From positions 437,096 through 501,095 of the forward strand of contig CAZWPK010000001.1 of the NCBI GenBank assembly GCA_964635905.1: DNA of 64,000 nucleotides, written 5' to 3'. Below are positions 2,511-64,000 of the stretch, piece by piece (within the stretch, counting starts at the first letter, position 1; the number at the start of each line of letters is the position of its first letter). The notes beneath the pieces are model-generated. The model did not search any database and was not told where the DNA came from. It saw nothing but the letters and a program-made list of their open reading frames with translations. The position numbers and the translations under genes were made by a program. Source of the stretch: an uncultured Pseudomonadales bacterium. GTDB taxonomy: Bacteria; Patescibacteriota; Microgenomatia; UBA1400; UBA12028.

Positions 2511-3260
2511 GTGGTGACAGCCAGGCCAACTCCTACACCCACTGCAACGGCAACTCCGACACCTACTCCTGTACCTGTGGATGTGGCCATCACCGCGGTC
2601 TACTTATGGGACTACAATGCGATGTCCTCGATCTTAAACCCAACTGCTTCAAACACTTTATCTATTGATGAGAAGAACTGGACATCGATTCCCTCTCCGA
2701 TCTCCATGACCTTTGAACTTAAAACGATTGGAAACACTTTCCAAAAGAGTGTTCCATATAGAGTGACTGCAAATGGAACAGTGATTCAATCCGGATTGAT
2801 TGGTCTGGTAAACTCATCCGGAACAATATCGCCAACCTTTAGCTTACCTTCTGCGCCAGCATCATATACGGTCGCAATTGATATTAATCAACCGAGTGAG
2901 TATACAGAGGCAAATACAAGTAATAATTCCTATACTTTCCCCTATACGATTCGCGCGGACACGACCCCACCACAAATATCCTTTGATATCCTCAAGCGGG
3001 CAGATACCCAACAAACATGTGTGACTCCACGCTATGCAATCGATGTCTCAACAAGTGAAAATGACATCCGTTTTGAAGGAAAACTTGATGGTGAAAACTG
3101 GTATTCTTTCACGTATCGACCAGATCCGAGCAAAGAGCCACGTTACGAGCGATGCTTAACTGGACCTGCGGGTGAGTACCATACCTTCTCTGTGAAAGCT
3201 TGGGACAAACGTGGGAACCAAACGGAGGGTGTATACTCGTTTAGTCTCTATGCATTCTAA
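2511..3260 (+). CDS. hypothetical protein with an N-terminal Thr/Pro-rich low-complexity segment (GTG start in the ORF track; no signal peptide)
   Basis: ORF of 249 aa, TPTPTATATPTPTPVP followed by a beta-rich region. An in-frame stop at 2493-2495 rules out an upstream extension. The start codon is uncertain. Confidence 0.3.
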   Translation: MVTARPTPTPTATATPTPTPVPVDVAITAVYLWDYNAMSSILNPTASNTLSIDEKNWTSIPSPISMTFELKTIGNTFQKSVPYRVTANGTVIQSGLIGLVNSSGTISPTFSLPSAPASYTVAIDINQPSEYTEANTSNNSYTFPYTIRADTTPPQISFDILKRADTQQTCVTPRYAIDVSTSENDIRFEGKLDGENWYSFTYRPDPSKEPRYERCLTGPAGEYHTFSVKAWDKRGNQTEGVYSFSLYAF

Positions 3261-3345: not shown

Positions 3346-4422
3346 ATGTATCCTATGCCACTTGCATATCTTGCGTCAGTAGACGCACTTGAAACGTATT
3401 TACAATCAAAACATCTTTCTTGGGAGAAGTGTCAGTTGCCAGACAAGGAGCAGTGCCGATCGTTGTTTACACTGCGGATTCCTCTCTCCTATGCCAATCT
3501 CATTAATTGGAAAGATCCAGAAGATCCCTTACGCATGATGGTGATGCCAAGTTTACTGGAGAAAAATATTCAGAACTACGAATTGTCTGATCCGATTGGG
3601 GATTCCAGCCATGAGCCTGTTCCTGGACTCATCCATCGGTATCCGAATCGTTGCTTGCTTCTGTGTACGACGTATTGCGGGGTCCATTGCAGATTTTGTT
3701 TTCGTCGCGATGTCATCGGGAAACCTCGGCCGATTGATATTCATGCAGGCGAAGGTTATTTACGATCACATCCAGAAATTGCAGAAGTCATTTTTTCCGG
3801 AGGTGACCCACTTACCTTCCCGATTGCCTTTTTGCGGGGAATGCTGTCAATGCTGGATTCGATTGCTTCTGTGCGAGTAATTCGTTTTCATACGCGCCTA
3901 GCAGTCATGGATCCCAGTGTCTTATCGACAGAATGGATTTCCGCACTAGCTATCCTGACAGGAAAACGAATCGTAATCGTACTGCATTGTAATCATGCCC
4001 GAGAAATTAGTCCGCAACTGCGTGCATCGGTACAGCGTTTACAAGCTGTCGGGATTGTGGTGCTCTCTCAATCGGTACTCTTACAAGGGGTCAATGATTC
4101 AACTTCTGCTCTGCAAGAGTTATTCTGGAACTTGTTCATCGATGGGATTATCCCCTATTATCTGCATCATCTTGACTATGCAAAAGGGACGCATCATTTT
4201 CGAATTTCGGTATCAAAAGGAAAAGCACTCTATGCATCGCTACGTGGTCGACTTCCAGGGTACTGTATTCCGGAGTATGTCGTAGATCTTCCCGGTGGAG
4301 ATGGAAAATTCCCAGTGATGCAGTTACAAGAGTTACGGGATGGTCATTATCTAGCCTACAGTTGGGATCAGCGCGAAGTTGAGTATGTTGATCAGGCGGT
4401 ATTAACATCCGACCAGCAGTGA
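3346..4422 (+). CDS. epmB: EF-P beta-lysylation protein EpmB (KamA-family radical SAM lysine 2,3-aminomutase)
   Basis: CGVHCRFCFRR is the radical-SAM CxxxCxxC motif in a KamA-like context. Length is 358 aa. Confidence 0.8.
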   Translation: MYPMPLAYLASVDALETYLQSKHLSWEKCQLPDKEQCRSLFTLRIPLSYANLINWKDPEDPLRMMVMPSLLEKNIQNYELSDPIGDSSHEPVPGLIHRYPNRCLLLCTTYCGVHCRFCFRRDVIGKPRPIDIHAGEGYLRSHPEIAEVIFSGGDPLTFPIAFLRGMLSMLDSIASVRVIRFHTRLAVMDPSVLSTEWISALAILTGKRIVIVLHCNHAREISPQLRASVQRLQAVGIVVLSQSVLLQGVNDSTSALQELFWNLFIDGIIPYYLHHLDYAKGTHHFRISVSKGKALYASLRGRLPGYCIPEYVVDLPGGDGKFPVMQLQELRDGHYLAYSWDQREVEYVDQAVLTSDQQ

Positions 4423-5404: not shown

Positions 5405-6469
5405 ATGAATTCAACCTGGAAGAGATTACGAGCCCAGCCCGACAAACTAACTTACTTGTATCAACGGGAGAAGATTGTTGATGCGATTCGACACTTTTTT
5501 AAGTCACAGGAGTTTTTAGAAGTAGACACACCTTTATTAGTTAAATCTCCTGGAACAGAGCCATATTTGGAAGTGTTTGCGACAACTCTGCTAGACTTTG
5601 AGCGTCATCCAACTCCTGCATATTTGCTCACTTCGCCAGAGTATGCATTAAAAAAATTGCTAGTTACTGGGATTCCAAAACTGTTTTCCATTTGTAAATC
5701 TTTTCGTAATGCAGAAGGTCTGTCCTTTAAACATAACCCTGAGTTTACCATCATGGAGTGGTATCGAACGCATGCAGACTACACTGACATTATGAAAGAC
5801 TGTGAACAGCTATTTGTTGCCATTGCACGAACCTTGGATACGACGCAGATTGGACCTACCACGTCCTGGACTTATCAAGGGAAAATGTATGATTTGACTC
5901 CCCCGTGGGAAAGAATTAGTGTTGCAGAGGCTTTTTTTAGCTACTGTGGGATTGATGTGGACACATTACTTGATGAGCGAAAGCTAAAGGAAGCAGGAAA
6001 AAAGCGCGGATTTTCCGTTGAATCCACTACAACTTGGGAACAGGTATACAACCAATTTTTACTCAACGATATCGAGCCGCATTTTGGAGTAGACCATCCG
6101 ACCATCATTTATGATTTCCCTGTTTCTCAAGCGTCGCTTGCTAAAAAAAAGGACTCTGATCCACGTTTTGCGGAGCGTTTCGAATTCTATGTGGCAGGAA
6201 TTGAGATGGGAAATGCGTTTTCAGAATTAACGGACGCCGAAGAGCAGCGATCCCGCTTTGAATCCGAACTTAACGAACGAGCCATCTTGGGCAAAACAGC
6301 ATATCAACTAGACGAAGATTACTTGGAAGCAATAAAAGCAGGTCTGCCACCCACCGGCGGGATAGCTGTTGGAATTGATCGTATCGTTATGTTTTTTGCG
6401 GATGCGCCGCAAATTTCAGATGTTGTTGTCTTTCCAGCGTCGGAATTATGGAACAAGCATTCTGATTAA
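5405..6469 (+). CDS. epmA: EF-P-lysine lysyltransferase EpmA (PoxA/GenX; LysRS catalytic-domain paralog)
   Basis: Class II aaRS core without an anticodon-binding domain. NPEFTIMEWY and GIAVGIDRIVMF match EpmA/LysRS motifs. A TATAAT box lies 10-11 nt before the ATG. Confidence 0.85.
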   Translation: MNSTWKRLRAQPDKLTYLYQREKIVDAIRHFFKSQEFLEVDTPLLVKSPGTEPYLEVFATTLLDFERHPTPAYLLTSPEYALKKLLVTGIPKLFSICKSFRNAEGLSFKHNPEFTIMEWYRTHADYTDIMKDCEQLFVAIARTLDTTQIGPTTSWTYQGKMYDLTPPWERISVAEAFFSYCGIDVDTLLDERKLKEAGKKRGFSVESTTTWEQVYNQFLLNDIEPHFGVDHPTIIYDFPVSQASLAKKKDSDPRFAERFEFYVAGIEMGNAFSELTDAEEQRSRFESELNERAILGKTAYQLDEDYLEAIKAGLPPTGGIAVGIDRIVMFFADAPQISDVVVFPASELWNKHSD

Positions 6470-16001: not shown

Positions 16002-16199
16002 TTAGGCTAATCCAAGCATTTGCTTGATCTTTTTGGCGAATTTCCCTTTGACTTCGACGGGTACTCTGTAGCGTCGAATTGCCTTCTTACTCTTGTTCAT
16101 TCGAAGGTGTCGTGAGTTTTGGCGTCGTCGCATCACTTTACCGGTCGCGGTAATTTTGAAACGCTTCGCAACAATTTTACGTACTTTCTGTTTTGGCAT
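16002..16199 (-). CDS. rpmI: 50S ribosomal protein L35
   Basis: MPKQKVRKIVAKRFKITATGKV... is canonical L35. Confidence 0.95.
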   Translation of the reverse strand: MPKQKVRKIVAKRFKITATGKVMRRRQNSRHLRMNKSKKAIRRYRVPVEVKGKFAKKIKQMLGLA

Positions 16200-36569: not shown

Positions 36570-39386
36570 CTATTTCCCGTGACACTTCTTAAATTTCTTG
36601 CCACTTCCACACGGGCACAGATCATTACGACCGATTTTTGCTTGCGCAATTCCTGGTGCTTCCACTTTATGCTCTTCTTTCACAGCCGAGAGAGCTGCTG
36701 CTAAATCAGAAGTGGACCCTTTGGTAGAGGTTGGTAGTGCTTTCGCTTTGGATTGCTTCTGTCCGTTGCCTGAGAAGGTATGTGTTGCCGTCGCCGTTCC
36801 TACCGATACTGCATCATGTCTGGCAATCATCTGATTACTAGGAATAGAAACGGGTTGCGGTGCAGCTCCTGAAACATGGACGCGGAAGATCTTTCGAGCG
36901 ATGTTGGCATCAATGGTGGCAATGAGTTTCTCAAACATCTGATAGGCTTCCTTTTTGTAGGCAGCTTGGGATGCTTGTTTGTCACCACGTAGCCAAATAC
37001 CTTCGCGCAGTGACTCCATTGCATCCAAATGATCCATCCAGTGTTCATCGATCGTTTGTAAGATCGTGTAACTTTCAATATCACGCATTAGTGTTTTTCC
37101 CACAACCTCTTCTCGGCGGTCATACGTTGTGTGTGCGATATTTTGCAGCACTTCAATTAAATGCGTGGTTTCTTTACTATCTTGTAGCTGAGTGCGCAGT
37201 TCGACTTGAGACGCATCATCGAATGGAATGACAGCGATGAATTCTTTGACGATGGCATCAATTTCATCGTCCGTAAAGTTCTCGGGAGCCCGTCCCACCA
37301 CAATCGATTCAATTTCTTGATCAATGATGGATAAGATCTGCAATTTGGATGGTGGCAACTCCCCTTCTTGTGAGTGTGGGAGACTTAAGAGCTCCAAAAG
37401 TTTGCGTCGACGTCGATAGATGACTTCACGCTGCTTGTTCATGACGTCATCGAGCTCAACGAGTCGTTTACGTTGATCAAAGAAAAATCCTTCCACTTTG
37501 ATTTGAGCTTGTTCAATGGCTTTTCCGACCATGCCTGCTTCAATTGGTTGGTTCTCATCCATCTTTAACGCGGTCATCAGATTGGAAATGCGATCGCCAC
37601 CAAAGATCCGCATGATTTCATCTTCAAGAGAGATATAGAATCGTGAAGATCCTGGATCACCTTGTCGACCGGCGCGTCCGCGAAGCTGATTATCAATACG
37701 ACGGGATTCGTGACGCTCCGTTCCCAATACATGGAGTCCACCGACTGCAACAACATCTTCATGACGCCTCTGCCATTCTTTGACAGCTTTTTTGTATTCC
37801 GCCGCCGTTTTGAAATCACGTAGTTCTGGTTTGGCTCCACCTAAGATAATGTCGACACCACGACCGGCGATATTGGTTGCAACCGTTACTGCTCCCGGTC
37901 GACCCGCATCGGCAATGATGAAGGCTTCCTTTTCATGATTCTTTGCGTTCAAGACTTGATGCGGAATACTTTTGTGCACTAACAAGTCTGAAATGACTTG
38001 GTTGATGTCAATGGATCGTGTTCCCAGTAGAACTGGTTGTCCACGTTTATGATAACTTTCAACTTCTGCAACAATAGCTTCGTACTTCGCTTGTGTATTC
38101 TTGTACACAATATCGGAATGATCCTGACGAACAACAGGTCGATGCGTCGGGATGGGAAAGACATCGATTTTGTAAATCTTGTTAAACTCTTCGCTTTCCG
38201 TTACCGCGGTTCCGGACATACCGGAAAGTTTTTCATAGAGTCTAAAATAGTTTTGCAGAGAAATTGTTGCAAGCGTTCGTGACTCTTGTTGAATCTTTAC
38301 GTTCTCTTTGGCCTCGATTGCTTGATGCAAGCCATCAGAGTAGCGACGACCATACATGAGTCGGCCCGTGTGTTCATCAACGATTATCACTTCACCATCA
38401 CGAACGATATATTCTTTGTCACGATGAAAGAGTGCGTGGGCTTTTAAGGCTGCTTCAATGTGATGAATCGTGTCAAAACTTTCTTCATATAAATTCTGCA
38501 CGCCTAATTTCGTTTCGACACGCTTGATTCCAAGATCCGTTAACACGACGCTGCGCATTTTCTCATCCAATTTGTAGTCACTGTCTTTGGCAAGGATCGT
38601 AATGAGTTTTGCAAAATCATAATACTTTGTCGTTGGTTCTGTATCGGGAGCAGAAATAATGAGTGGTGTACGCGCTTCATCAATCAAAATGGAGTCTGCT
38701 TCGTCAACGATTGCAAAGTGATGACCACGTTGGACCACATCACCAAGTTTTTGCGCCATGTTGTCACGCAGATAATCAAAACCGAATTCATTATTCGTTC
38801 CATAGGTAACGTCGGCTGCGTAGGCTTCTTTGCGTGGGATAATCCGGAAATGCTCTAAACGATCATCACCTTTTTCTTCTCCACGAAACGAGGGATCATA
38901 TAGAAAAGCTTTGTCATGAATGATGACAGCAACGGAGACTCCCAGAAGGTGGTAGATCGGTCCCATCCATCCTGCACCTAGCTGTGCAAGATAATCGTTG
39001 ACGGTGACAAGATGCGCACCTTTACCGGTCAAGGAATTCAAGAATAAAGGGAGGGTTGCAGAAAGAGTCTTTCCTTCTCCCGTTTTTTGCTCTGCGATTT
39101 TTCCTTCATGAAAGGCAATACCTGCCATTAACTGTACATCGTAGTGCTGCATGCCGATGGTGCGTCGGGCGGCTTCGCGCACAAGTGCAAAGCTCTCGGG
39201 AAGGACAGCATCCAATGATTCTCCTTTGCTGATGCGATCCCGAAGCTTCTGCGTTCGCTTGGCTAGGTCATCATCGTCCAATTTCTCGAGTTTCTTATCA
39301 AACGAGTGAATTTGATCAACAATGGTTTGATAGCGGTCGAGGGTTTTTCGCTGCGGATTTAAAAACGATGAAAGTATCTTAAACAT
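36570..39386 (-). CDS. secA: preprotein translocase ATPase SecA
   Basis: 938 aa with DEAD-like motor motifs. C-terminal zinc-binding CPCGSGKKFKKCHGK. Confidence 0.95.
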   Translation of the reverse strand: MFKILSSFLNPQRKTLDRYQTIVDQIHSFDKKLEKLDDDDLAKRTQKLRDRISKGESLDAVLPESFALVREAARRTIGMQHYDVQLMAGIAFHEGKIAEQKTGEGKTLSATLPLFLNSLTGKGAHLVTVNDYLAQLGAGWMGPIYHLLGVSVAVIIHDKAFLYDPSFRGEEKGDDRLEHFRIIPRKEAYAADVTYGTNNEFGFDYLRDNMAQKLGDVVQRGHHFAIVDEADSILIDEARTPLIISAPDTEPTTKYYDFAKLITILAKDSDYKLDEKMRSVVLTDLGIKRVETKLGVQNLYEESFDTIHHIEAALKAHALFHRDKEYIVRDGEVIIVDEHTGRLMYGRRYSDGLHQAIEAKENVKIQQESRTLATISLQNYFRLYEKLSGMSGTAVTESEEFNKIYKIDVFPIPTHRPVVRQDHSDIVYKNTQAKYEAIVAEVESYHKRGQPVLLGTRSIDINQVISDLLVHKSIPHQVLNAKNHEKEAFIIADAGRPGAVTVATNIAGRGVDIILGGAKPELRDFKTAAEYKKAVKEWQRRHEDVVAVGGLHVLGTERHESRRIDNQLRGRAGRQGDPGSSRFYISLEDEIMRIFGGDRISNLMTALKMDENQPIEAGMVGKAIEQAQIKVEGFFFDQRKRLVELDDVMNKQREVIYRRRRKLLELLSLPHSQEGELPPSKLQILSIIDQEIESIVVGRAPENFTDDEIDAIVKEFIAVIPFDDASQVELRTQLQDSKETTHLIEVLQNIAHTTYDRREEVVGKTLMRDIESYTILQTIDEHWMDHLDAMESLREGIWLRGDKQASQAAYKKEAYQMFEKLIATIDANIARKIFRVHVSGAAPQPVSIPSNQMIARHDAVSVGTATATHTFSGNGQKQSKAKALPTSTKGSTSDLAAALSAVKEEHKVEAPGIAQAKIGRNDLCPCGSGKKFKKCHGK

Positions 39387-39477
39387 AGATGTTCCTTCTT
39401 GTTCTCAGTAGAGCTAGATTGTAGCAAAAAAGTCGACTTTTTGTGAACGGAACAGGGTGAAGAGATGAAGACACAAA

Positions 39478-39510
39478 AAAGGCCAGACTAACGCCTGGCC
39501 CTTTGTACGT
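39478..39510 (-). terminator. rho-independent terminator after the small lysine-rich gene (GGCCAG..CTGGCC hairpin + U-run)
   Basis: On the minus strand: ACAAAGGGCCAGGCGTTAGTCTGGCC followed by TTTTTT. Confidence 0.55.
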
Positions 39511-39525
39511 ACAAAAAGCGTGAAC

Positions 39526-39675
39526 TTAACGGCGGGCGGTTGCTCGCTTCGTTGTTTTCTTTGCTGTTTTACGAGCGGTTGTCTTCTTTGCGACTTTCTT
39601 TACTACTTTCTTTGCAACCTTCTTTACTGTTTTCTTCACTGCTTTTTTGACTGTTTTTTTCTTTGCTGCTGGCAT
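39526..39675 (-). CDS. 49-aa lysine-rich histone H1-like / nucleoid-associated basic protein (MPAAKKKTVKKAVKKTVKKVAKKVVKKVAKKTTARKTAKKTTKRATARR). Not in the ORF track because it is under 60 aa.
   Basis: Strong AGGGAGGTG RBS 7 nt upstream of the ATG. Terminator downstream. KKxVKK repeats as in Hc1/H1-like tails. Confidence 0.6.
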   Translation of the reverse strand: MPAAKKKTVKKAVKKTVKKVAKKVVKKVAKKTTARKTAKKTTKRATARR

Positions 39676-39817
39676 AGGTGTTACACCTCCCTTTCAAGGG
39701 TTTGCACACGTTACTATGTGCAAAATTTTATTACTCATTTCAGTAAAAGAAATATTGACACCATTGTCAATACCCTGTTGGTGTTTACAGGCTAACTTGG
39801 TCTGTAAAAATAAATTA

Positions 39818-41080
39818 TTACAGCGAAGAAATTTTTTCTTTTCCAAGAATTGGACGTAAAACTTGTGGAACGGTGATCGATCCATCTTCTTGTTGGTAAT
39901 TTTCAATCACTGCTGCAAGCAAGCGTGGTGTTGCGGCAACGGTATTATTTAAGGTGTACACATATTTGAGTTCACCCGTTGCTGTTTTATACCGCATGTT
40001 GAGTCGTCGTGCTTGAAAATCGTTAAAGTAACTTGCGGAATGTGTTTCACGATAGGTGTTCTCACCAGGAAACCAGGTTTCGATATCATACTTTTTCCGT
40101 TGACCGGCTCCCATATCACCCGTGCACATGAGAAGTACGTGATACGACAAACCTAATCCTTGCAATAATTCTTCGGAGTATGCCACCATCTGCTCATGCA
40201 TCACCTTTGTTTGTTCTTCATCCGCAACGGTTAACACGACTTGTTCTACTTTGCTAAATTGATGGACTCTGAAAAAACCCTTCGTATCTTTGCCATATGA
40301 TCCCACTTCACGACGAAAGCATGGTGAAATTCCTACAAGTTTGATTGGAAGATCTTTTTCGGTAAGCACTTCATTTTGATGATAGGCAGTCAACGATACT
40401 TCTGCAGTGCCAATCAGCCCTTGATCGTCTTGCGTCGTGTAATGATCTTCCATACCCCAAGGAAAATATCCAGTGCCCCAGAGTGCTTCCTTATTGACCA
40501 TCCAGGGAACGGTCATAGGAGTGAATCCTTTTGCAATCATTAATTGCAAGGCATACTGATGAAGTGCCATTTCAAGCAAGACAAGATCACCTTTAAGCAT
40601 GTAGGCGCGTCGCCCACCAATGGCAACTGCTTTTTCACTCTCAAACAGATTCAAGTTGGTTGCGAGCGCATAGTGTGGCTTTGGCTTGAATGCAAACGAT
40701 GGTTTTTCTCCCACCGTACGCACGACCACATTTTCTGTTTCATCTTTTCCAATCGGAGTATCAGTGGATGCGGGATTTGGAACATAGAGTAATAAGGAAT
40801 TAAATTCTGTTTCGACTGCTTTTAGTTCTGGCTCCACGGCTGCTAGTTGTGATTTAAATTCCTTTCCCGTTACAATTTCTTCCTCTGTTGGCTTTCTTCC
40901 CTTAATGGATGCAACATGTGTATTGGCTTGCTTTCGAATTCCCTCTACTGTTGCAATCAAGCCTCGTCGTTTGGTATCTAATGCTAACACCTGATCCACA
41001 ATTGCTGGATCCATTTGCTTTTCTGCGATTGCTTGTTTTAGTGTGTCGGCATTCTGCTGAATGTATTTGATATCGACCAT
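39818..41080 (-). CDS. serS: serine--tRNA ligase
   Basis: N-terminal coiled-coil arm plus class II core. 420 aa. Confidence 0.9.
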   Translation of the reverse strand: MVDIKYIQQNADTLKQAIAEKQMDPAIVDQVLALDTKRRGLIATVEGIRKQANTHVASIKGRKPTEEEIVTGKEFKSQLAAVEPELKAVETEFNSLLLYVPNPASTDTPIGKDETENVVVRTVGEKPSFAFKPKPHYALATNLNLFESEKAVAIGGRRAYMLKGDLVLLEMALHQYALQLMIAKGFTPMTVPWMVNKEALWGTGYFPWGMEDHYTTQDDQGLIGTAEVSLTAYHQNEVLTEKDLPIKLVGISPCFRREVGSYGKDTKGFFRVHQFSKVEQVVLTVADEEQTKVMHEQMVAYSEELLQGLGLSYHVLLMCTGDMGAGQRKKYDIETWFPGENTYRETHSASYFNDFQARRLNMRYKTATGELKYVYTLNNTVAATPRLLAAVIENYQQEDGSITVPQVLRPILGKEKISSL

Positions 41081-42256: not shown

Positions 42257-44383
42257 CTAGAGGCCGATTTCCTGAGCATGCGCTTGCATCGCTGGAAGAA
42301 CAACTGAAATTAAGGTGTTCAAATCAATGTTCAGATGTGTTAGACCTTCCGTAATCTCCTCTCGAGTTGCCCCTTTTGCAAACGATTTCTCTTTAAATTT
42401 CTTAGCGACCCGTTCTGGGGTAACCGTGGCCAGTTTCTTCTCTGGCATGACTAAAGCACAGGCAACAATGATTCCGGTTAGGTGATCACAAGTATATAAA
42501 CACCATTCCATTAAGGACTCTGGATGTCGTTGACCTTCTAGGTGTTCATAGTTATGGGTGCGAATACTATCTGCCCAAGCGGGCTGAATTCCTAACTTTT
42601 CTAGCTCTTGAGACAAGACAAGTGTGTGTTGATCTGGAGTATCTTCAGTCTTCTCCCAGTCTGCATCATGAAGTAACCCAACCAGTTCCCAACTTTGCTG
42701 CGTTTCACTTACTTCTTGTGGTCGATTGGAAGAGAAATAGCTCCAGAGTCCCGACATTGCAGCTTCCACTGCAAACATATGAGATTTCAGATTTTGGTTG
42801 TCAATGAGTTGGTCTAGCAGCCCAACAGCTTGCTCACGAGTAAGTGTAAGAGCTGTCAAAGCACCCGGCTTTGTTGCGCTCTTCGCTTTGGGTGCATGGT
42901 GATTGAGCATCAACGCAGAAATCTTTTGCTGTTCTTCTGTGGGACGTAACGTAGGAAATGCGATGACTTCTTTAATGGACCAAGTGTTGGTCAAAAACAT
43001 CACCAGACGATCGATTCCAATTCCAATTCCACCTAGTGGAGGTAGTCCATGTTCCATGGCTGCGATGAAGTCCTCATCCAACGGTTGGGCTTCGGCATCT
43101 CCTTCGCGCATATTCTTTTGCTCATTTTCGAATCGGGCACGCTGATCGAGCGCATCGGTGATCTCACTCCAACCATCTGCCATTTCTTTAGTACCCACAT
43201 ACAGCTCGAAACGTTCTACAAATCCATCCTTACTTCGGTGCGCTTTGGCAAGGGGACTGACTTCTTTAGGATAATCAATGATCCAGGTTGGGTTTAACAA
43301 CTGCTTGGTTGTGAGGTGATCAAAAAGAGCAAAGATTGCTTTACCGCGGGTGAAACTACCGGTCAATTCAATGGTATGCGTTGCCAAGACTGCTTCCAGT
43401 TGCTCATCGGAAAGCTCGTTCACATCAATCTCATTATACTTTTTTAGTGCATCCGTCATGGTGATTCTTGGCCAGTTACCAGACAAATCAATTTGGGTTT
43501 GCCCGACATCGAGGGTAAGCGAGTTATAGAGCTTCTGAGCTAAGTGCTTAAACATTCCTTCGGCAACGTCCATCATGACGGTGTAGTCTGCGTAGGCGTG
43601 ATACCACTCAATCATCGTAAACTCTGGTTGATGAGTCTGATCAATGCCTTCATTTCTAAAGTTACGCGCAATTTCAAAGACTCTCTCGTAGCCACCGACA
43701 ATCAGACGCTTTAGATACAGCTCTGGAGCAATCCGCAAAAAGAAGTCACTATCCAACGCATTCATGTGTGTAGAGAATGGCTTGGCATTTGTTCCCCCAT
43801 ACAGAGGTTGAAGCACCGGGGTTTCCACTTCCACAAAGTTATAGACGTCTTGAAGATAGCGTCGAATTTCCTTTTCGATGAGCCAACGTGCATCCAGCAC
43901 TTTCTTGACCTGAGGATCAATGACCATGTCTAGATAACGGTTGCGAAAACGAACTTCTTTGTCTTCAATACCTTGGAATGATGCAGGCAGAGAGCGCAGT
44001 GCTTTGGAGAGCAGGGCAAGCTCACCGGCCTCGATCGTTATCTCCCCTGTTTTGGTTTGAATGACTTTCCCGGAAACACCCAAATAATCGGATGCATCGA
44101 TCAAGGTAACCAATTGCTTATAGGCAACAATTCCTACTGTCTCTTCTTTGACCATGACTTGAATGGTCCCAGATGGATCGGACAAATTGAGGAAGGTTAC
44201 CTTTCCGTGCTCGCGCTTGGACAGAATGCGTCCGGCCGTGGTTACCTCTTCACCTAGTGATTCTCGTGCAGTAGACACACCATGGGTTTTGGCAAAGCTA
44301 TACGGATGGACTACCACACCTTGGGCTTCTAGTTCTTTGCGCTTGGCAAGCTTGGCTTGAATTGTTTCATCGAGACGGGACAT
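42257..44383 (-). CDS. lysS: lysine--tRNA ligase (class II) fused to a ~200-aa C-terminal HD-domain (YqeK-like phosphohydrolase) extension
   Basis: LysRS core runs to ...IAFPTLRP at about residue 497 (E. coli LysS ends there). The extension carries H (KSHMFAVE), HD (LLHDADW), H (IRTHNYEH) and D (CDHLTG), matching the HD superfamily motif order. Confidence 0.85.
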   Translation of the reverse strand: MSRLDETIQAKLAKRKELEAQGVVVHPYSFAKTHGVSTARESLGEEVTTAGRILSKREHGKVTFLNLSDPSGTIQVMVKEETVGIVAYKQLVTLIDASDYLGVSGKVIQTKTGEITIEAGELALLSKALRSLPASFQGIEDKEVRFRNRYLDMVIDPQVKKVLDARWLIEKEIRRYLQDVYNFVEVETPVLQPLYGGTNAKPFSTHMNALDSDFFLRIAPELYLKRLIVGGYERVFEIARNFRNEGIDQTHQPEFTMIEWYHAYADYTVMMDVAEGMFKHLAQKLYNSLTLDVGQTQIDLSGNWPRITMTDALKKYNEIDVNELSDEQLEAVLATHTIELTGSFTRGKAIFALFDHLTTKQLLNPTWIIDYPKEVSPLAKAHRSKDGFVERFELYVGTKEMADGWSEITDALDQRARFENEQKNMREGDAEAQPLDEDFIAAMEHGLPPLGGIGIGIDRLVMFLTNTWSIKEVIAFPTLRPTEEQQKISALMLNHHAPKAKSATKPGALTALTLTREQAVGLLDQLIDNQNLKSHMFAVEAAMSGLWSYFSSNRPQEVSETQQSWELVGLLHDADWEKTEDTPDQHTLVLSQELEKLGIQPAWADSIRTHNYEHLEGQRHPESLMEWCLYTCDHLTGIIVACALVMPEKKLATVTPERVAKKFKEKSFAKGATREEITEGLTHLNIDLNTLISVVLPAMQAHAQEIGL

Positions 44384-62338: not shown

Positions 62339-62396
62339 GAAATGCTAGTTATCGTCTGTAGAGCTATTGACATCATTTAGTTACGCTTTATGTACT

Positions 62397-62609
62397 ATGT
62401 CAATAACTCCTACCAGAAAGCAGTTTGGCAAGAGGCTAAGAGCCTTAAGAAAGAAGGCTGGGCTGTCTCAGGAGGAATTAGGCTTTAGAGCCAACCTCCA
62501 TAGAACTTATATCGGTTCTATCGAAAGAGCTGAGCAAAACGTGTCGGTGGATAATATCCACAAACTCGCTAAAGCCTTGAAAGTCTCGGCTGACGAGTTC
62601 TTCAAATAA
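62397..62609 (+). CDS. XRE family HTH transcriptional regulator
   Basis: LRALRKKAGLSQEELGFRANLHRTYIGSIERAEQNVSVDNIHKLAKAL. Probable start at the internal Met (62397). Confidence 0.6.
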   Translation: MSITPTRKQFGKRLRALRKKAGLSQEELGFRANLHRTYIGSIERAEQNVSVDNIHKLAKALKVSADEFFK

Positions 62610-64000
62610 TTAAAATCTTTTACCCCACATCCCTGCGGTGATGGGTGCGTCTAAGTTTCGGTACTCTCCAGTGAATGGATCTATTCCCCAACGATCCCTT
62701 GGTGGCTCGGTAGGGCCATTTGATTTATAGGTTGGTCTGTCAGACTGCAAGACTTTTAAAACGATTATGGTAAATGCATCAACCAGATCGTCATGCTTTT
62801 CGATGCCAAAATTTACGATTTGACTAATGAGAGACTCTGCACCTTTTTGTGGGAACAGAACTTTACCTTGTCTGATATATGGCGTTGCCATTTCTAACCT
62901 TGTCTGTTTATTCATGCCGGATATCGCAACTGGTTCTGCTAATATTTTTTCAATAGTTAATTGTTGAACGACTGCCATTTGGTAGCTTACATTTTCAACT
63001 AAAACCGTAGGTACTCGTTTGTAGTCTTGTTCTAAAACGGCACTAACTCTTTTAATTTCTAAAATCGTATCGGGAAAGTTCATCCGTTTATTTACGATAT
63101 ACGGCAGGACGTATATTTTTAAGTCGTCCCCGTATCCAATAACAATAAAGGGAACGAGGGAGGTAAAATCTGCACTGCTTTTTTCGGAAATAGCCAAGTC
63201 AATTCCGATTCCTAAAATTCGATAATATCGTAGGTCTGGCAACTTATCATAAAACTGTGGCCAGCTCCTTTGCACGATTCTCTTATCGTCAGAAATAAAC
63301 TTGAGTAAATACTCACGATACCAAGCTGATTCATCTGCAACCTGTCGTCTTTTTGTTTCGATATGCATCATCGAGGGATATTTGCCAAGCCAAGCGATAT
63401 TGTCATTTTTATCGAGTAAGGGGTATTCTTTGTAGACTCCATCCATTTTTCCGTTATTAATATTTTCCTTTAGTCGCATCATTAGAGAGTCTTCATGCAA
63501 GAGGTTTCCGATAATAACAATCTTAGTATTAAGATCGCCGATAGGCATAACCTCTCCCGTAAACCAATTCCACACTTTGTCCCGACCCTCTCTAGTTTTA
63601 ACTGATTCCAAATCTTCAACGTCATCAATCACGATAAGGTCTGGCCGATACTGGTAGTGGCGTAACCCTCGGATACTCTCACTTTGAGAGATGGCCGAAA
63701 TGCGAGCGTTAAATTGGGGAATTACAAATGAGTTAGACCTCCACTCATCGGCAACTTCATTAAATGGTCCAAAGTCTCGGATTAATAATTCATTTGATGA
63801 CAATTCTTGTTTAATGTTAGTTAATATTTGCTTGGATAGATCCTGAGTTTGGCTAACAACTAAGGTATATTTCTTGGCAGGTCTACCCACCATTGCCCAG
63901 ATTGGGTAGGCAAGACTGGCAATGGTCGATTTTGCCGAACCTCGAAAAGCCGTTATCGCTACTTTTAATAATCCGTCATTTTGCAGCAGATTAAATATTT
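62610..64000 (-). CDS. phage terminase large subunit (the N-terminal ATPase part runs off the window end)
   Basis: The reading frame stays open to nt 64000. The upstream translation gives ...FRGSAKSTIASLAYPIWA (Walker A-like P-loop). DLIVIDDVED resembles Walker B. A C-terminal RNaseH-like nuclease region has acidic residues. Confidence 0.65.
   Translation of the reverse strand, partial: IFNLLQNDGLLKVAITAFRGSAKSTIASLAYPIWAMVGRPAKKYTLVVSQTQDLSKQILTNIKQELSSNELLIRDFGPFNEVADEWRSNSFVIPQFNARISAISQSESIRGLRHYQYRPDLIVIDDVEDLESVKTREGRDKVWNWFTGEVMPIGDLNTKIVIIGNLLHEDSLMMRLKENINNGKMDGVYKEYPLLDKNDNIAWLGKYPSMMHIETKRRQVADESAWYREYLLKFISDDKRIVQRSWPQFYDKLPDLRYYRILGIGIDLAISEKSSADFTSLVPFIVIGYGDDLKIYVLPYIVNKRMNFPDTILEIKRVSAVLEQDYKRVPTVLVENVSYQMAVVQQLTIEKILAEPVAISGMNKQTRLEMATPYIRQGKVLFPQKGAESLISQIVNFGIEKHDDLVDAFTIIVLKVLQSDRPTYKSNGPTEPPRDRWGIDPFTGEYRNLDAPITAGMWGKRF

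Follow-up and report, generated by a model that had tools for sequence, protein, structure and literature searches.

We found that the minus strand of the window (the whole 64,000-nt stretch of DNA analysed) carries, between serS and secA, a small gene for a lysine-repeat peptide of 49 aa (39526-39675(-); peptide MPAAKKKTVKKAVKKTVKKVAKKVVKKVAKKTTARKTAKKTTKRATARR). Comparison with related genomes indicates that this is a real gene, whose frame is translated and which is subject to purifying selection. Its product may be a small, abundant polycation that binds nucleic acids without specificity and sits on the nucleoid like the C-terminal tail of histone H1, a reading drawn from composition and analogy whose chances we put at about even. 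An earlier note on this DNA had described the ORF as unlisted. The translation of 39526-39675(-) matches the sequence quoted there exactly, and the unlisted status turned out to be an effect of a 60-aa cut-off; public gene calls include the exact product.

The small gene and its conservation among relatives

The SecA encoded next to the small gene shares 95% identity with the SecA of a 'Candidatus Woesebacteria' MAG, and the 80 SecA-related loci retrieved all came from Patescibacteria or from mislabelled MAGs of the same kind. In the window, which has a GC content of 43%, the small ORF stands on the minus strand after lysS, two other small ORFs, a NUDIX gene, a 70-aa ORF and serS (39818-41080), in that order, and before secA (36570-39386). 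A longer form of the small ORF is excluded by an in-frame TGA 21 nt upstream. The Cys/Phe/Leu-rich ORF of 91 aa found on the plus strand (39520-39795) had been interpreted as an antisense shadow, and we agree, since AAR and GYN codons read in reverse cannot make stops and so keep this frame open; one of the relatives, L002, also has an open antisense frame opposite its KK-repeat ORF. As a separate observation, the lysyl-tRNA synthetase of this region (42257-44383(-), 708 aa) extends ~220 aa at its C-terminus past the class II core, and for this extension Pfam returned nothing and NCBIfam only a sub-threshold HDIG-domain match (E=0.009).

At least 10 metagenome contigs, which derive from several sequencing runs, have gene calls for the identical 49-aa product, and its context is always serS-ORF-secA. 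Divergent versions were sought at loci retrieved by their SecA, the peptide not being used for retrieval. The four closest of these loci with usable upstream sequence (L002, L004, L005 and L022; SecA 77-81% identical) all harbour a KKxx-repeat ORF of 38-45 aa upstream of secA. The five peptides align at 66-79% identity, with an invariant lysine register and a shared C-terminus, KRA(S/T)AR, and orthologue length ranges from 38 to 49 aa through the gain or loss of whole repeat units, with unchanged composition. In the gapless comparison of L004 with L005 we counted 10.5 synonymous versus 1.5 non-synonymous changes (pS 0.33, pN 0.015), giving a dN/dS of ~0.03, and more distant orthologue pairs showed pN values of 0.08-0.29 with pS saturated. 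SecA-anchored pairs were used for this calculation because the contigs L081-L086 had been chosen by exact protein identity; for the same reason, their synonymous-only variation was discarded as evidence of selection. As judged from these alignments, selection keeps the composition and the repeat period more than the exact sequence or length. Conservation in relatives and the low dN/dS, together with the SD, the promoter geometry and the conserved terminator described below, support the earlier claim of a real small gene.

This conservation has clear limits. In L006 (SecA 64%), serS runs directly into secA with no small ORF between them; L003 (SecA 75%) has kept the promoter and the leader hairpin, and its KK ORF is degenerate; and in ~70 loci at ~50% SecA identity no such ORF was seen within 6 kb of secA. 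Therefore, the small gene is dispensable and either restricted to a narrow clade or located elsewhere in other genomes, and it is no general chromatin protein of the CPR. The suggested check for conservation upstream of secA thus gave a positive result in L002, L004, L005 and L022 and a negative one beyond this clade. In place of the KK ORF, L003, the nearest relative that lacks the gene and one with an intact TTGACA-17-TTTACT, presents at 5795-5960 two GC-rich hairpins and a doubtful 32-aa frame with a GTG start and no SD, a stretch that may be a decayed gene or may reflect its replacement by a small structured RNA.

The annotation of these genes also deserves comment. Gene calls for the KK-repeat ORFs of L002 (5582-5797, public protein P0001, 71 aa), L022 (1353-1535) and L092 (3348-3518; a contig to which we return below) begin too far upstream, their called starts falling inside the promoter or the leader, and the SD-supported starts correspond to peptides of 38 aa, 40 aa and ~35 aa, respectively. 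Small lysine-repeat genes are liable to wrong annotated starts.

Signals for transcription and translation

Upstream of the gene, a candidate promoter could be recognised by its arrangement in six genomes. Its -35 element is a TTGACA, invariant in the six, that is preceded by a conserved TA (TATTGACA, 39765-39772(-)). Exactly 17 nt after TTGACA there is a second hexamer, TTTACT (39742-39747(-)), which stands at the same position in all six genomes as TTTACT, TTAACT or AATACT (WWWACT), and the 3' half of the 17-nt spacer is similar across genomes (AATTCTC-like). An alignment anchored on TTGACA further revealed, 6-8 nt after the second hexamer, a conserved AGTAMT block (39730-39735(-)), probably the transcription start and the initial transcribed sequence. 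The order (C)TA-TTGACA, 17 nt, hexamer, AGTAMT, leader stem-loop, strong SD and ORF is common across the genomes. The second hexamer is non-canonical, without the A at position 2, and a consensus scan did not flag the promoter; the argument for its function is the fixed position across genomes. Because of this departure from the canonical A, we go no further than to infer that the gene is highly expressed and its product abundant. The TTGACA-17-WWWACT geometry is unique within the window, and the idea of a regulon sharing it was discarded, as a single occurrence of the pattern is at chance level.

The earlier note had drawn attention to a perfect inverted repeat at 39755-39770, some 80 nt upstream of the gene and overlying the TTGACA, as a plausible operator. 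The repeat does exist upstream of the gene, but its extent is greater (8+8 with a 4-nt loop, TATTGACAatggTGTCAATA, 39753-39772), and the distance from TTGACA to the ATG was measured as 95 nt. The left arm of this palindrome is the -35 box and the right arm is promoter spacer. In simulated 142-nt regions, a 6+6 repeat was present in 46% and an 8+8 repeat in ~5%. The right arm, which matches at 8/8 positions in the window, matches at 7/8 in L082, 6/8 in L083, 5/8 in L022, 4/8 in L004, L005 and L002, and 3/8 in L003. Since the right arm decays to background in relatives, leaving the TTGACA arm as the only conserved one, and since it already differs between L082, L083 and the window, which encode identical peptides and are otherwise nearly identical here, a conserved operator is unsupported.

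A strain-specific version, in which a dimeric HTH protein such as the phage-type XRE regulator encoded at 62397-62609 would bind TATTGACAatggTGTCAATA and repress the gene by occluding the -35 element, has a low probability and we consider it improbable. What keeps it alive, besides the ~5% chance expectation for a perfect 8+8 repeat, is that the 8-mer pair recurs at 62365-62405, where it covers the XRE promoter and start codon, that the whole window holds 5 copies of the 8-mer, and that substitutions among strains cluster in the repeat centre, the three strain variants retaining the outer TATTGA...TCAATA. However, these retained outer bases sit in sequence that is nearly identical between the strains anyway, (C)TATTGACA is the plain conserved -35 context of the promoter in five genomes, and the 8-mers of the second site are 25 nt apart instead of 4 nt, a spacing that does not fit one dimer.

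Several observations on inverted repeats in the window can be added. The window, L082 and L083 are virtually identical over 450 nt, and the substitutions between them are concentrated within 6 nt at the centre of the palindrome (ATGGTG, AGCGAG and ATGTGT), where there could be a mutational hot spot (e.g. through quasi-palindrome template switching) or selection on the spacer. The 431-nt stretch between serS and secA (39387-39817) contains 3 of the ~20 distinct perfect 8+8 inverted repeats of the window. The pair at 62365-62405 reads TATTGACA...TGTCAATA, and 4 of the 5 copies of the 8-mer in the window belong to this pair and the one at 39753-39772. The XRE/HTH_3 regulator itself (62397-62609(+), 70 aa; Pfam E=1e-16) abuts a phage terminase large-subunit gene (62610-63893(-); phrog_38, E=4e-60), and the window seems to run into a prophage, or what is left of one, at its right end.

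Between promoter and gene, the leader (5'-UTR) contains a predicted stem-loop of 8-9 bp, UUUUGCACA-uaguaac-GUGUGCAAA (39701-39725(-)). Equivalent stems of 7-8 bp with other sequences are found in L002, L003, L004, L005 and L022, the arms of the leader stems reading GCACA/TGTGC, TCTC/GAGA, TTGTG/CACAA and GGATTTT/AAAATCC; the stem of L022 has 8 bp with one G-U pair, and the chance of finding a leader stem was 0.004-0.06 per genome. A 5' stem-loop close to the start of an mRNA is a classic stabiliser of abundant mRNAs, and the leader stem-loop would serve the same role here. In a search of the window against Rfam 15, tRNAs alone reached the gathering score and no leader family was recovered, and a permissive scan of 39380-39830 gave just two sub-threshold chance matches over the terminator; with no Rfam family match, we discarded the possibility that the leader contains an RNA element of a known kind.

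The Shine-Dalgarno sequence AGGGAGGTG (39684-39692(-)) precedes the ATG by 8 nt (TAACACCT). Its predicted duplex with a generic anti-SD has an energy of -15.1 kcal/mol, which ranks third among 52 window genes (median -5.3) when each other gene is given its best in-frame start. Thus, of the strong SD reported 7 nt upstream, the strength stands and the spacing does not. A weak 5-bp hairpin can form between part of the SD and CACCT (39676-39680), and a strong SD (AAGGAGG or GGCGGTG) occurs at the same position in L002, L004, L005 and L022.

Downstream, an A/U-rich palindrome (CTTTTTGTACGTACAAAG, 39501-39518(-)) lies right after the stop codon; L022 has a similar element, and those of L002, L004 and L005 are weaker. 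In the window, the palindrome abuts an intrinsic terminator (AAAGGGCCAGGCGTTAGTCTGGCCTTTTTT, 39475-39504(-)) of 12 pairs followed by a T-run, which folds at -21 kcal/mol (z = -2.8). The terminator had been predicted before, and an independent scan detected it at 39504-39477(-). The four orthologous loci also have a GC-rich terminator after the gene, each with a different sequence; their z values run from -0.65 to -5.5, the weakest being that of L005.

Beyond the terminator and outside the small gene, secA has its own promoter, TTCACA-18-TGcTACAAT (39418-39447(-)), and is therefore a separate transcription unit, with a 31-nt leader and an AAGGA SD in the window. Taken as a whole, the conserved layout argues that the small gene is an autonomous monocistronic unit. 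These features weigh against the idea of a SecM-like leader peptide controlling secA in cis, or of a fortuitous ORF or non-coding element. Such an idea might be suggested by the position of the ORF, which directly precedes secA in five genomes, including those with a different gene on its other side. A SecM-type leader would be co-transcribed with secA and would combine an N-terminal signal or transmembrane segment with a C-terminal arrest motif, a combination that the small gene does not show: the strong terminator and the separate secA promoter stand between the two genes, L022 has ~470 nt extra between them, and the peptide offers no signal, transmembrane or hydrophobic segment with which to monitor secretion. 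As, in addition, the dN/dS of 0.03 and the conserved SD favour a functional protein and Rfam contains no matching RNA family, we regard this explanation as highly improbable.

Two further features of the secA upstream regions were observed. The spacer of the secA promoter in the window holds a perfect inverted repeat, AAAAAGTC|GACTTTTT (39427-39442). In L003 (~5960-6003), L004 (~5975-6003) and L005 (~2290-2313), secA has an extended -10 element (TGATACAAT, TGATAGAAT or TGTTAGAAT) located 8-9 nt before the ATG and no SD, suggesting that the secA mRNA is leaderless in these three relatives.

The peptide and known lysine-rich proteins

The peptide consists of 19 K, 9 A, 8 T, 7 V, 4 R, 1 P and 1 M, with no acidic or aromatic residues and a net charge of +23; lysine makes up 39% of it, and lysine plus arginine 47%. 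It is built of ~7 KKxx repeats (x = V, A or T) and the conserved KRA(T/S)AR tail, and its coding sequence shows a tandem DNA repeat with a 12-nt period over 39584-39661. AlphaFold2, run without an alignment, predicted a single helix (residues 3-48, pLDDT 86) and no globular domain. The KKxx periodicity resembles that of designed cationic helical peptides, and with a single predicted helix it could suggest a cationic amphipathic, membrane-active product (antimicrobial, toxin or lysis peptide). This idea was discarded on hydrophobic moment and hydrophobicity: the moment has its maximum (0.73) at 90 degrees, against no more than 0.31 at the 100 degrees of an alpha-helix, the residues average -0.47 in hydrophobicity, and Leu, Ile, Phe and Trp are absent. 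Against it also stand the lack of a signal peptide and of an antitoxin or antisense partner, the strong, constitutive, housekeeping-style signals and the purifying selection, so that a membrane-active role has a very slight probability in our view.

Homologue searches did not place the peptide in a named family. With the peptide and its orthologues, hmmscan against Pfam-A at E<=10 returned only three spurious families (SseC, NNH2 and DUF7888), and neither the Hc1 (PF07432) and HC2 (PF07382) profiles nor the Pfam linker-histone model gave a match. For the peptide itself, NCBIfam yielded 0 families and PHROGs only noise. A phmmer search of 1.84 billion representatives gave 0 matches, and a word-indexed search found none at E<=0.01 and only compositional look-alikes at E<=10. 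With a 49-aa low-complexity query, none of these negative results weighs much. Hence the suggested search for KK-repeat homologues through Pfam, NCBIfam and HMMER led to no named family for this short, low-complexity query. A metagenome scan with the orthologue alignment recovered one unrelated, AlgP-like protein of 229 aa (L091). As far as these profile searches indicate, the peptide belongs to no named H1-like family. By composition, it does fall into the class of bacterial H1-tail-like lysine-rich proteins, defined here by at least ~35-40% Lys, richness in Ala, essentially no acidic residues and tandem short repeats: it has 39% Lys, no acidic residues and tandem repeats, and its composition is conserved above its sequence.

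Comparison with members of this class and with related tails shows what is shared and what is particular. The chlamydial Hc1 and Hc2 are also bacterial, very rich in Lys and Ala, of low complexity and regarded as non-specific DNA condensers, but they are far longer proteins, Hc1 possesses a conserved N-terminal domain, and the peptide and its four orthologues match neither the Hc1 nor the HC2 model of Pfam. The Pseudomonas proteins AlgP and PhaF share tandem 4-residue Lys repeats, an H1-tail-like composition and variation in repeat number. AlgP, however, is a 352-aa protein with KPAA units (one Lys and one Pro each), predicted disorder and a 124-aa helical N-domain (PMC9239181), whereas the peptide has two Lys per KKxx unit, a single Pro, a helical prediction and no other domain; the combination of long KPAA array and N-terminal helical domain typical of the AlgP/PhaF type is absent. 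The tails of actinobacterial HupB/Hlp, Ku and TopA (PAKKA/KAAK) are likewise Lys/Ala repeats that raise non-specific DNA affinity (PMC3553676, PMC7398561), but they are appendages of folded DNA-binding domains and not the product of a free-standing gene of 38-49 codons. The C-terminal extension of Parcubacteria uS19 comes from the CPR too and has the same composition and a "similar length" of ~25 aa (PMC9297842), although it is a ribosome-contacting tail in a different CPR subgroup and not an independent gene. Finally, the eukaryotic H1 C-terminal domain is alike in having ~40% Lys, much Ala, no acidic residues and selection on composition over sequence. That domain is disordered until bound to DNA. 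Unlike H1, the peptide lacks a winged-helix globular domain and S/TPKK motifs, is proline-poor, has one-fifth of the size and shows no detectable homology; its 49 aa form one continuous predicted helix, and not the winged-helix domain with basic tails that defines a linker histone H1/H5. The peptide is thus a minimal, domain-free, proline-poor and helix-prone version of the bacterial H1-tail-like lysine-rich proteins, of which a full-text literature search found no report in Patescibacteria.

Look-alikes were encountered in other genomes. L087, a high-GC contig, has a weak compositional look-alike, an SD-preceded gene for 47 aa. On L092, another low-GC metagenome contig, a free-standing KK gene for ~35 aa (MAAKKKAVKKVAKK...KRA, ~3412-3518) lies 230 nt downstream of a gene for a SET-domain lysine methyltransferase (2527-3117); the KK gene has its own extended -10, and the KK and SET genes each have their own terminator. 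This neighbourhood recalls chlamydial Hc1, which the SET enzyme cpnSET binds and methylates (PMC3980110). As a general feature, the SET link was discarded: it was seen at this single locus, no SET homologue exists in the window or near the orthologues, and tblastn with the SET protein of L092 as query gave nothing relevant, either in the window or at any of the loci. Phage proteins and others provided further look-alikes, in the form of KK-repeat segments at their N-termini. The best match with a named context, P0005, was rejected as an orthologue, as it sits in a phage head/packaging module. In L088-L090, a phage gene at 4001-4186 belongs to a head/packaging module, in which it comes after a terminase gene and a 606-aa portal-sized gene; its product has 61 aa, starts with a KK-repeat (MPAKKKTAKKTVKKTVKQ...) and may bind DNA as an internal or packaging protein. 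This kind of KK-repeat mini-protein recurs, probably by convergence.

Nucleoid, ribosome or another polyanion

The nucleic-acid-binding reading follows from composition and analogy and can be phrased as a mechanism. The free peptide would probably be disordered through charge repulsion and, once its lysines were neutralised on a polyanion, might fold into one long alpha-helix in which the lysine pairs at i, i+1, i+4 and i+5 would contact phosphates. Binding would lack sequence specificity, chromosomal DNA being the most likely partner, and the peptide could act as a small nucleoid-associated protein that neutralises charge or compacts, like the tails of H1, Hc1/Hc2, AlgP/PhaF and HupB. In agreement with this analogy, KPAA-repeat peptides of AlgP bind DNA in vitro and have been likened to the H1 tail (PMC9239181), and the lysine-rich PAKKA repeats of mycobacterial Ku modulate DNA binding (PMC3553676). 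The analogy also draws on the stand-alone look-alike genes of the unrelated genomes L087 and L092, and on the SET gene beside the latter. Against a place on the nucleoid speak the absence of homology to any H1-like family, a composition poor in proline and rich in valine and threonine that differs from the H1, AlgP and HupB tails, the missing gene of L006 and degenerate gene of L003, the non-canonical second promoter hexamer and the confinement of SET adjacency to one locus.

RNA would be an equally natural partner, and the main rival to the nucleoid reading is a polycation associated with RNA or the ribosome, either a lineage-specific rRNA-binding accessory protein or an RNA chaperone or charge neutraliser; we hold this to be possible and clearly less probable. 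It is favoured by the tiny size, extreme basicity and strong SD of the peptide, by its translation and housekeeping neighbours (lysS, serS and secA) and by the resemblance to a ribosomal protein of the only other plausible very basic small ORF of the window (16002-16199). Ribosomal proteins are usually Arg-rich, non-repetitive and conserved in length, whereas the length of the peptide varies by repeat units; moreover, the gene is absent or degenerate in close relatives and lies outside any ribosomal-protein operon. Still on the side of RNA, CPR ribosomes are remodelled, and the Ala/Lys-rich tail described above was gained by a ribosomal protein, the Parcubacteria uS19 (PMC9297842).

A peptide with a charge of +23 binds any polyanion, and AlgP, whose KPAA repeats are H1-tail-like, is found at polyphosphate granules, which it keeps spaced (PMC9239181). 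The lysine-repeat peptide could accordingly be imagined as a tether or counter-ion for such granules or for the anionic cell envelope. However, AlgP and PhaF owe their specificity to an N-terminal domain that the 49-aa peptide does not have, and polyphosphate genes were not seen adjacent to the gene; we therefore judge this role very unlikely, and the small nucleoid-binding polycation is the reading that we retain.

The advance is incremental, because bacteria have been known to make lysine-rich, H1-tail-like proteins since around 1990, and what the present one does is inferred. Cells of the CPR/Patescibacteria are tiny and their genomes reduced, and to our knowledge the packaging of their DNA is almost wholly unexplored. 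A stand-alone polycation of 49 aa with strong expression signals would be a cheap and plausible solution, and one that is easily synthesised. The finding also exposes a blind spot: proteins of this kind escape HMMER-type searches and are hidden by length cut-offs or misplaced starts, as illustrated by one public gene call of the KK ORF that begins inside the promoter. A census based on composition and signals could show how common lysine-repeat mini-proteins are. In its boldest form, which we think unlikely, the KKxx helix of 38-49 residues would be the smallest free-standing bacterial chromatin protein seen so far, a major constituent of nucleoid or ribosome in a Woesebacteria-like CPR lineage and a member of a recurrent class that is largely missed by homology searches and gene callers and may sometimes be paired with SET enzymes. 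If this were true, the SET pairing in some genomes would represent a minimal bacterial 'histone tail plus writer' system.
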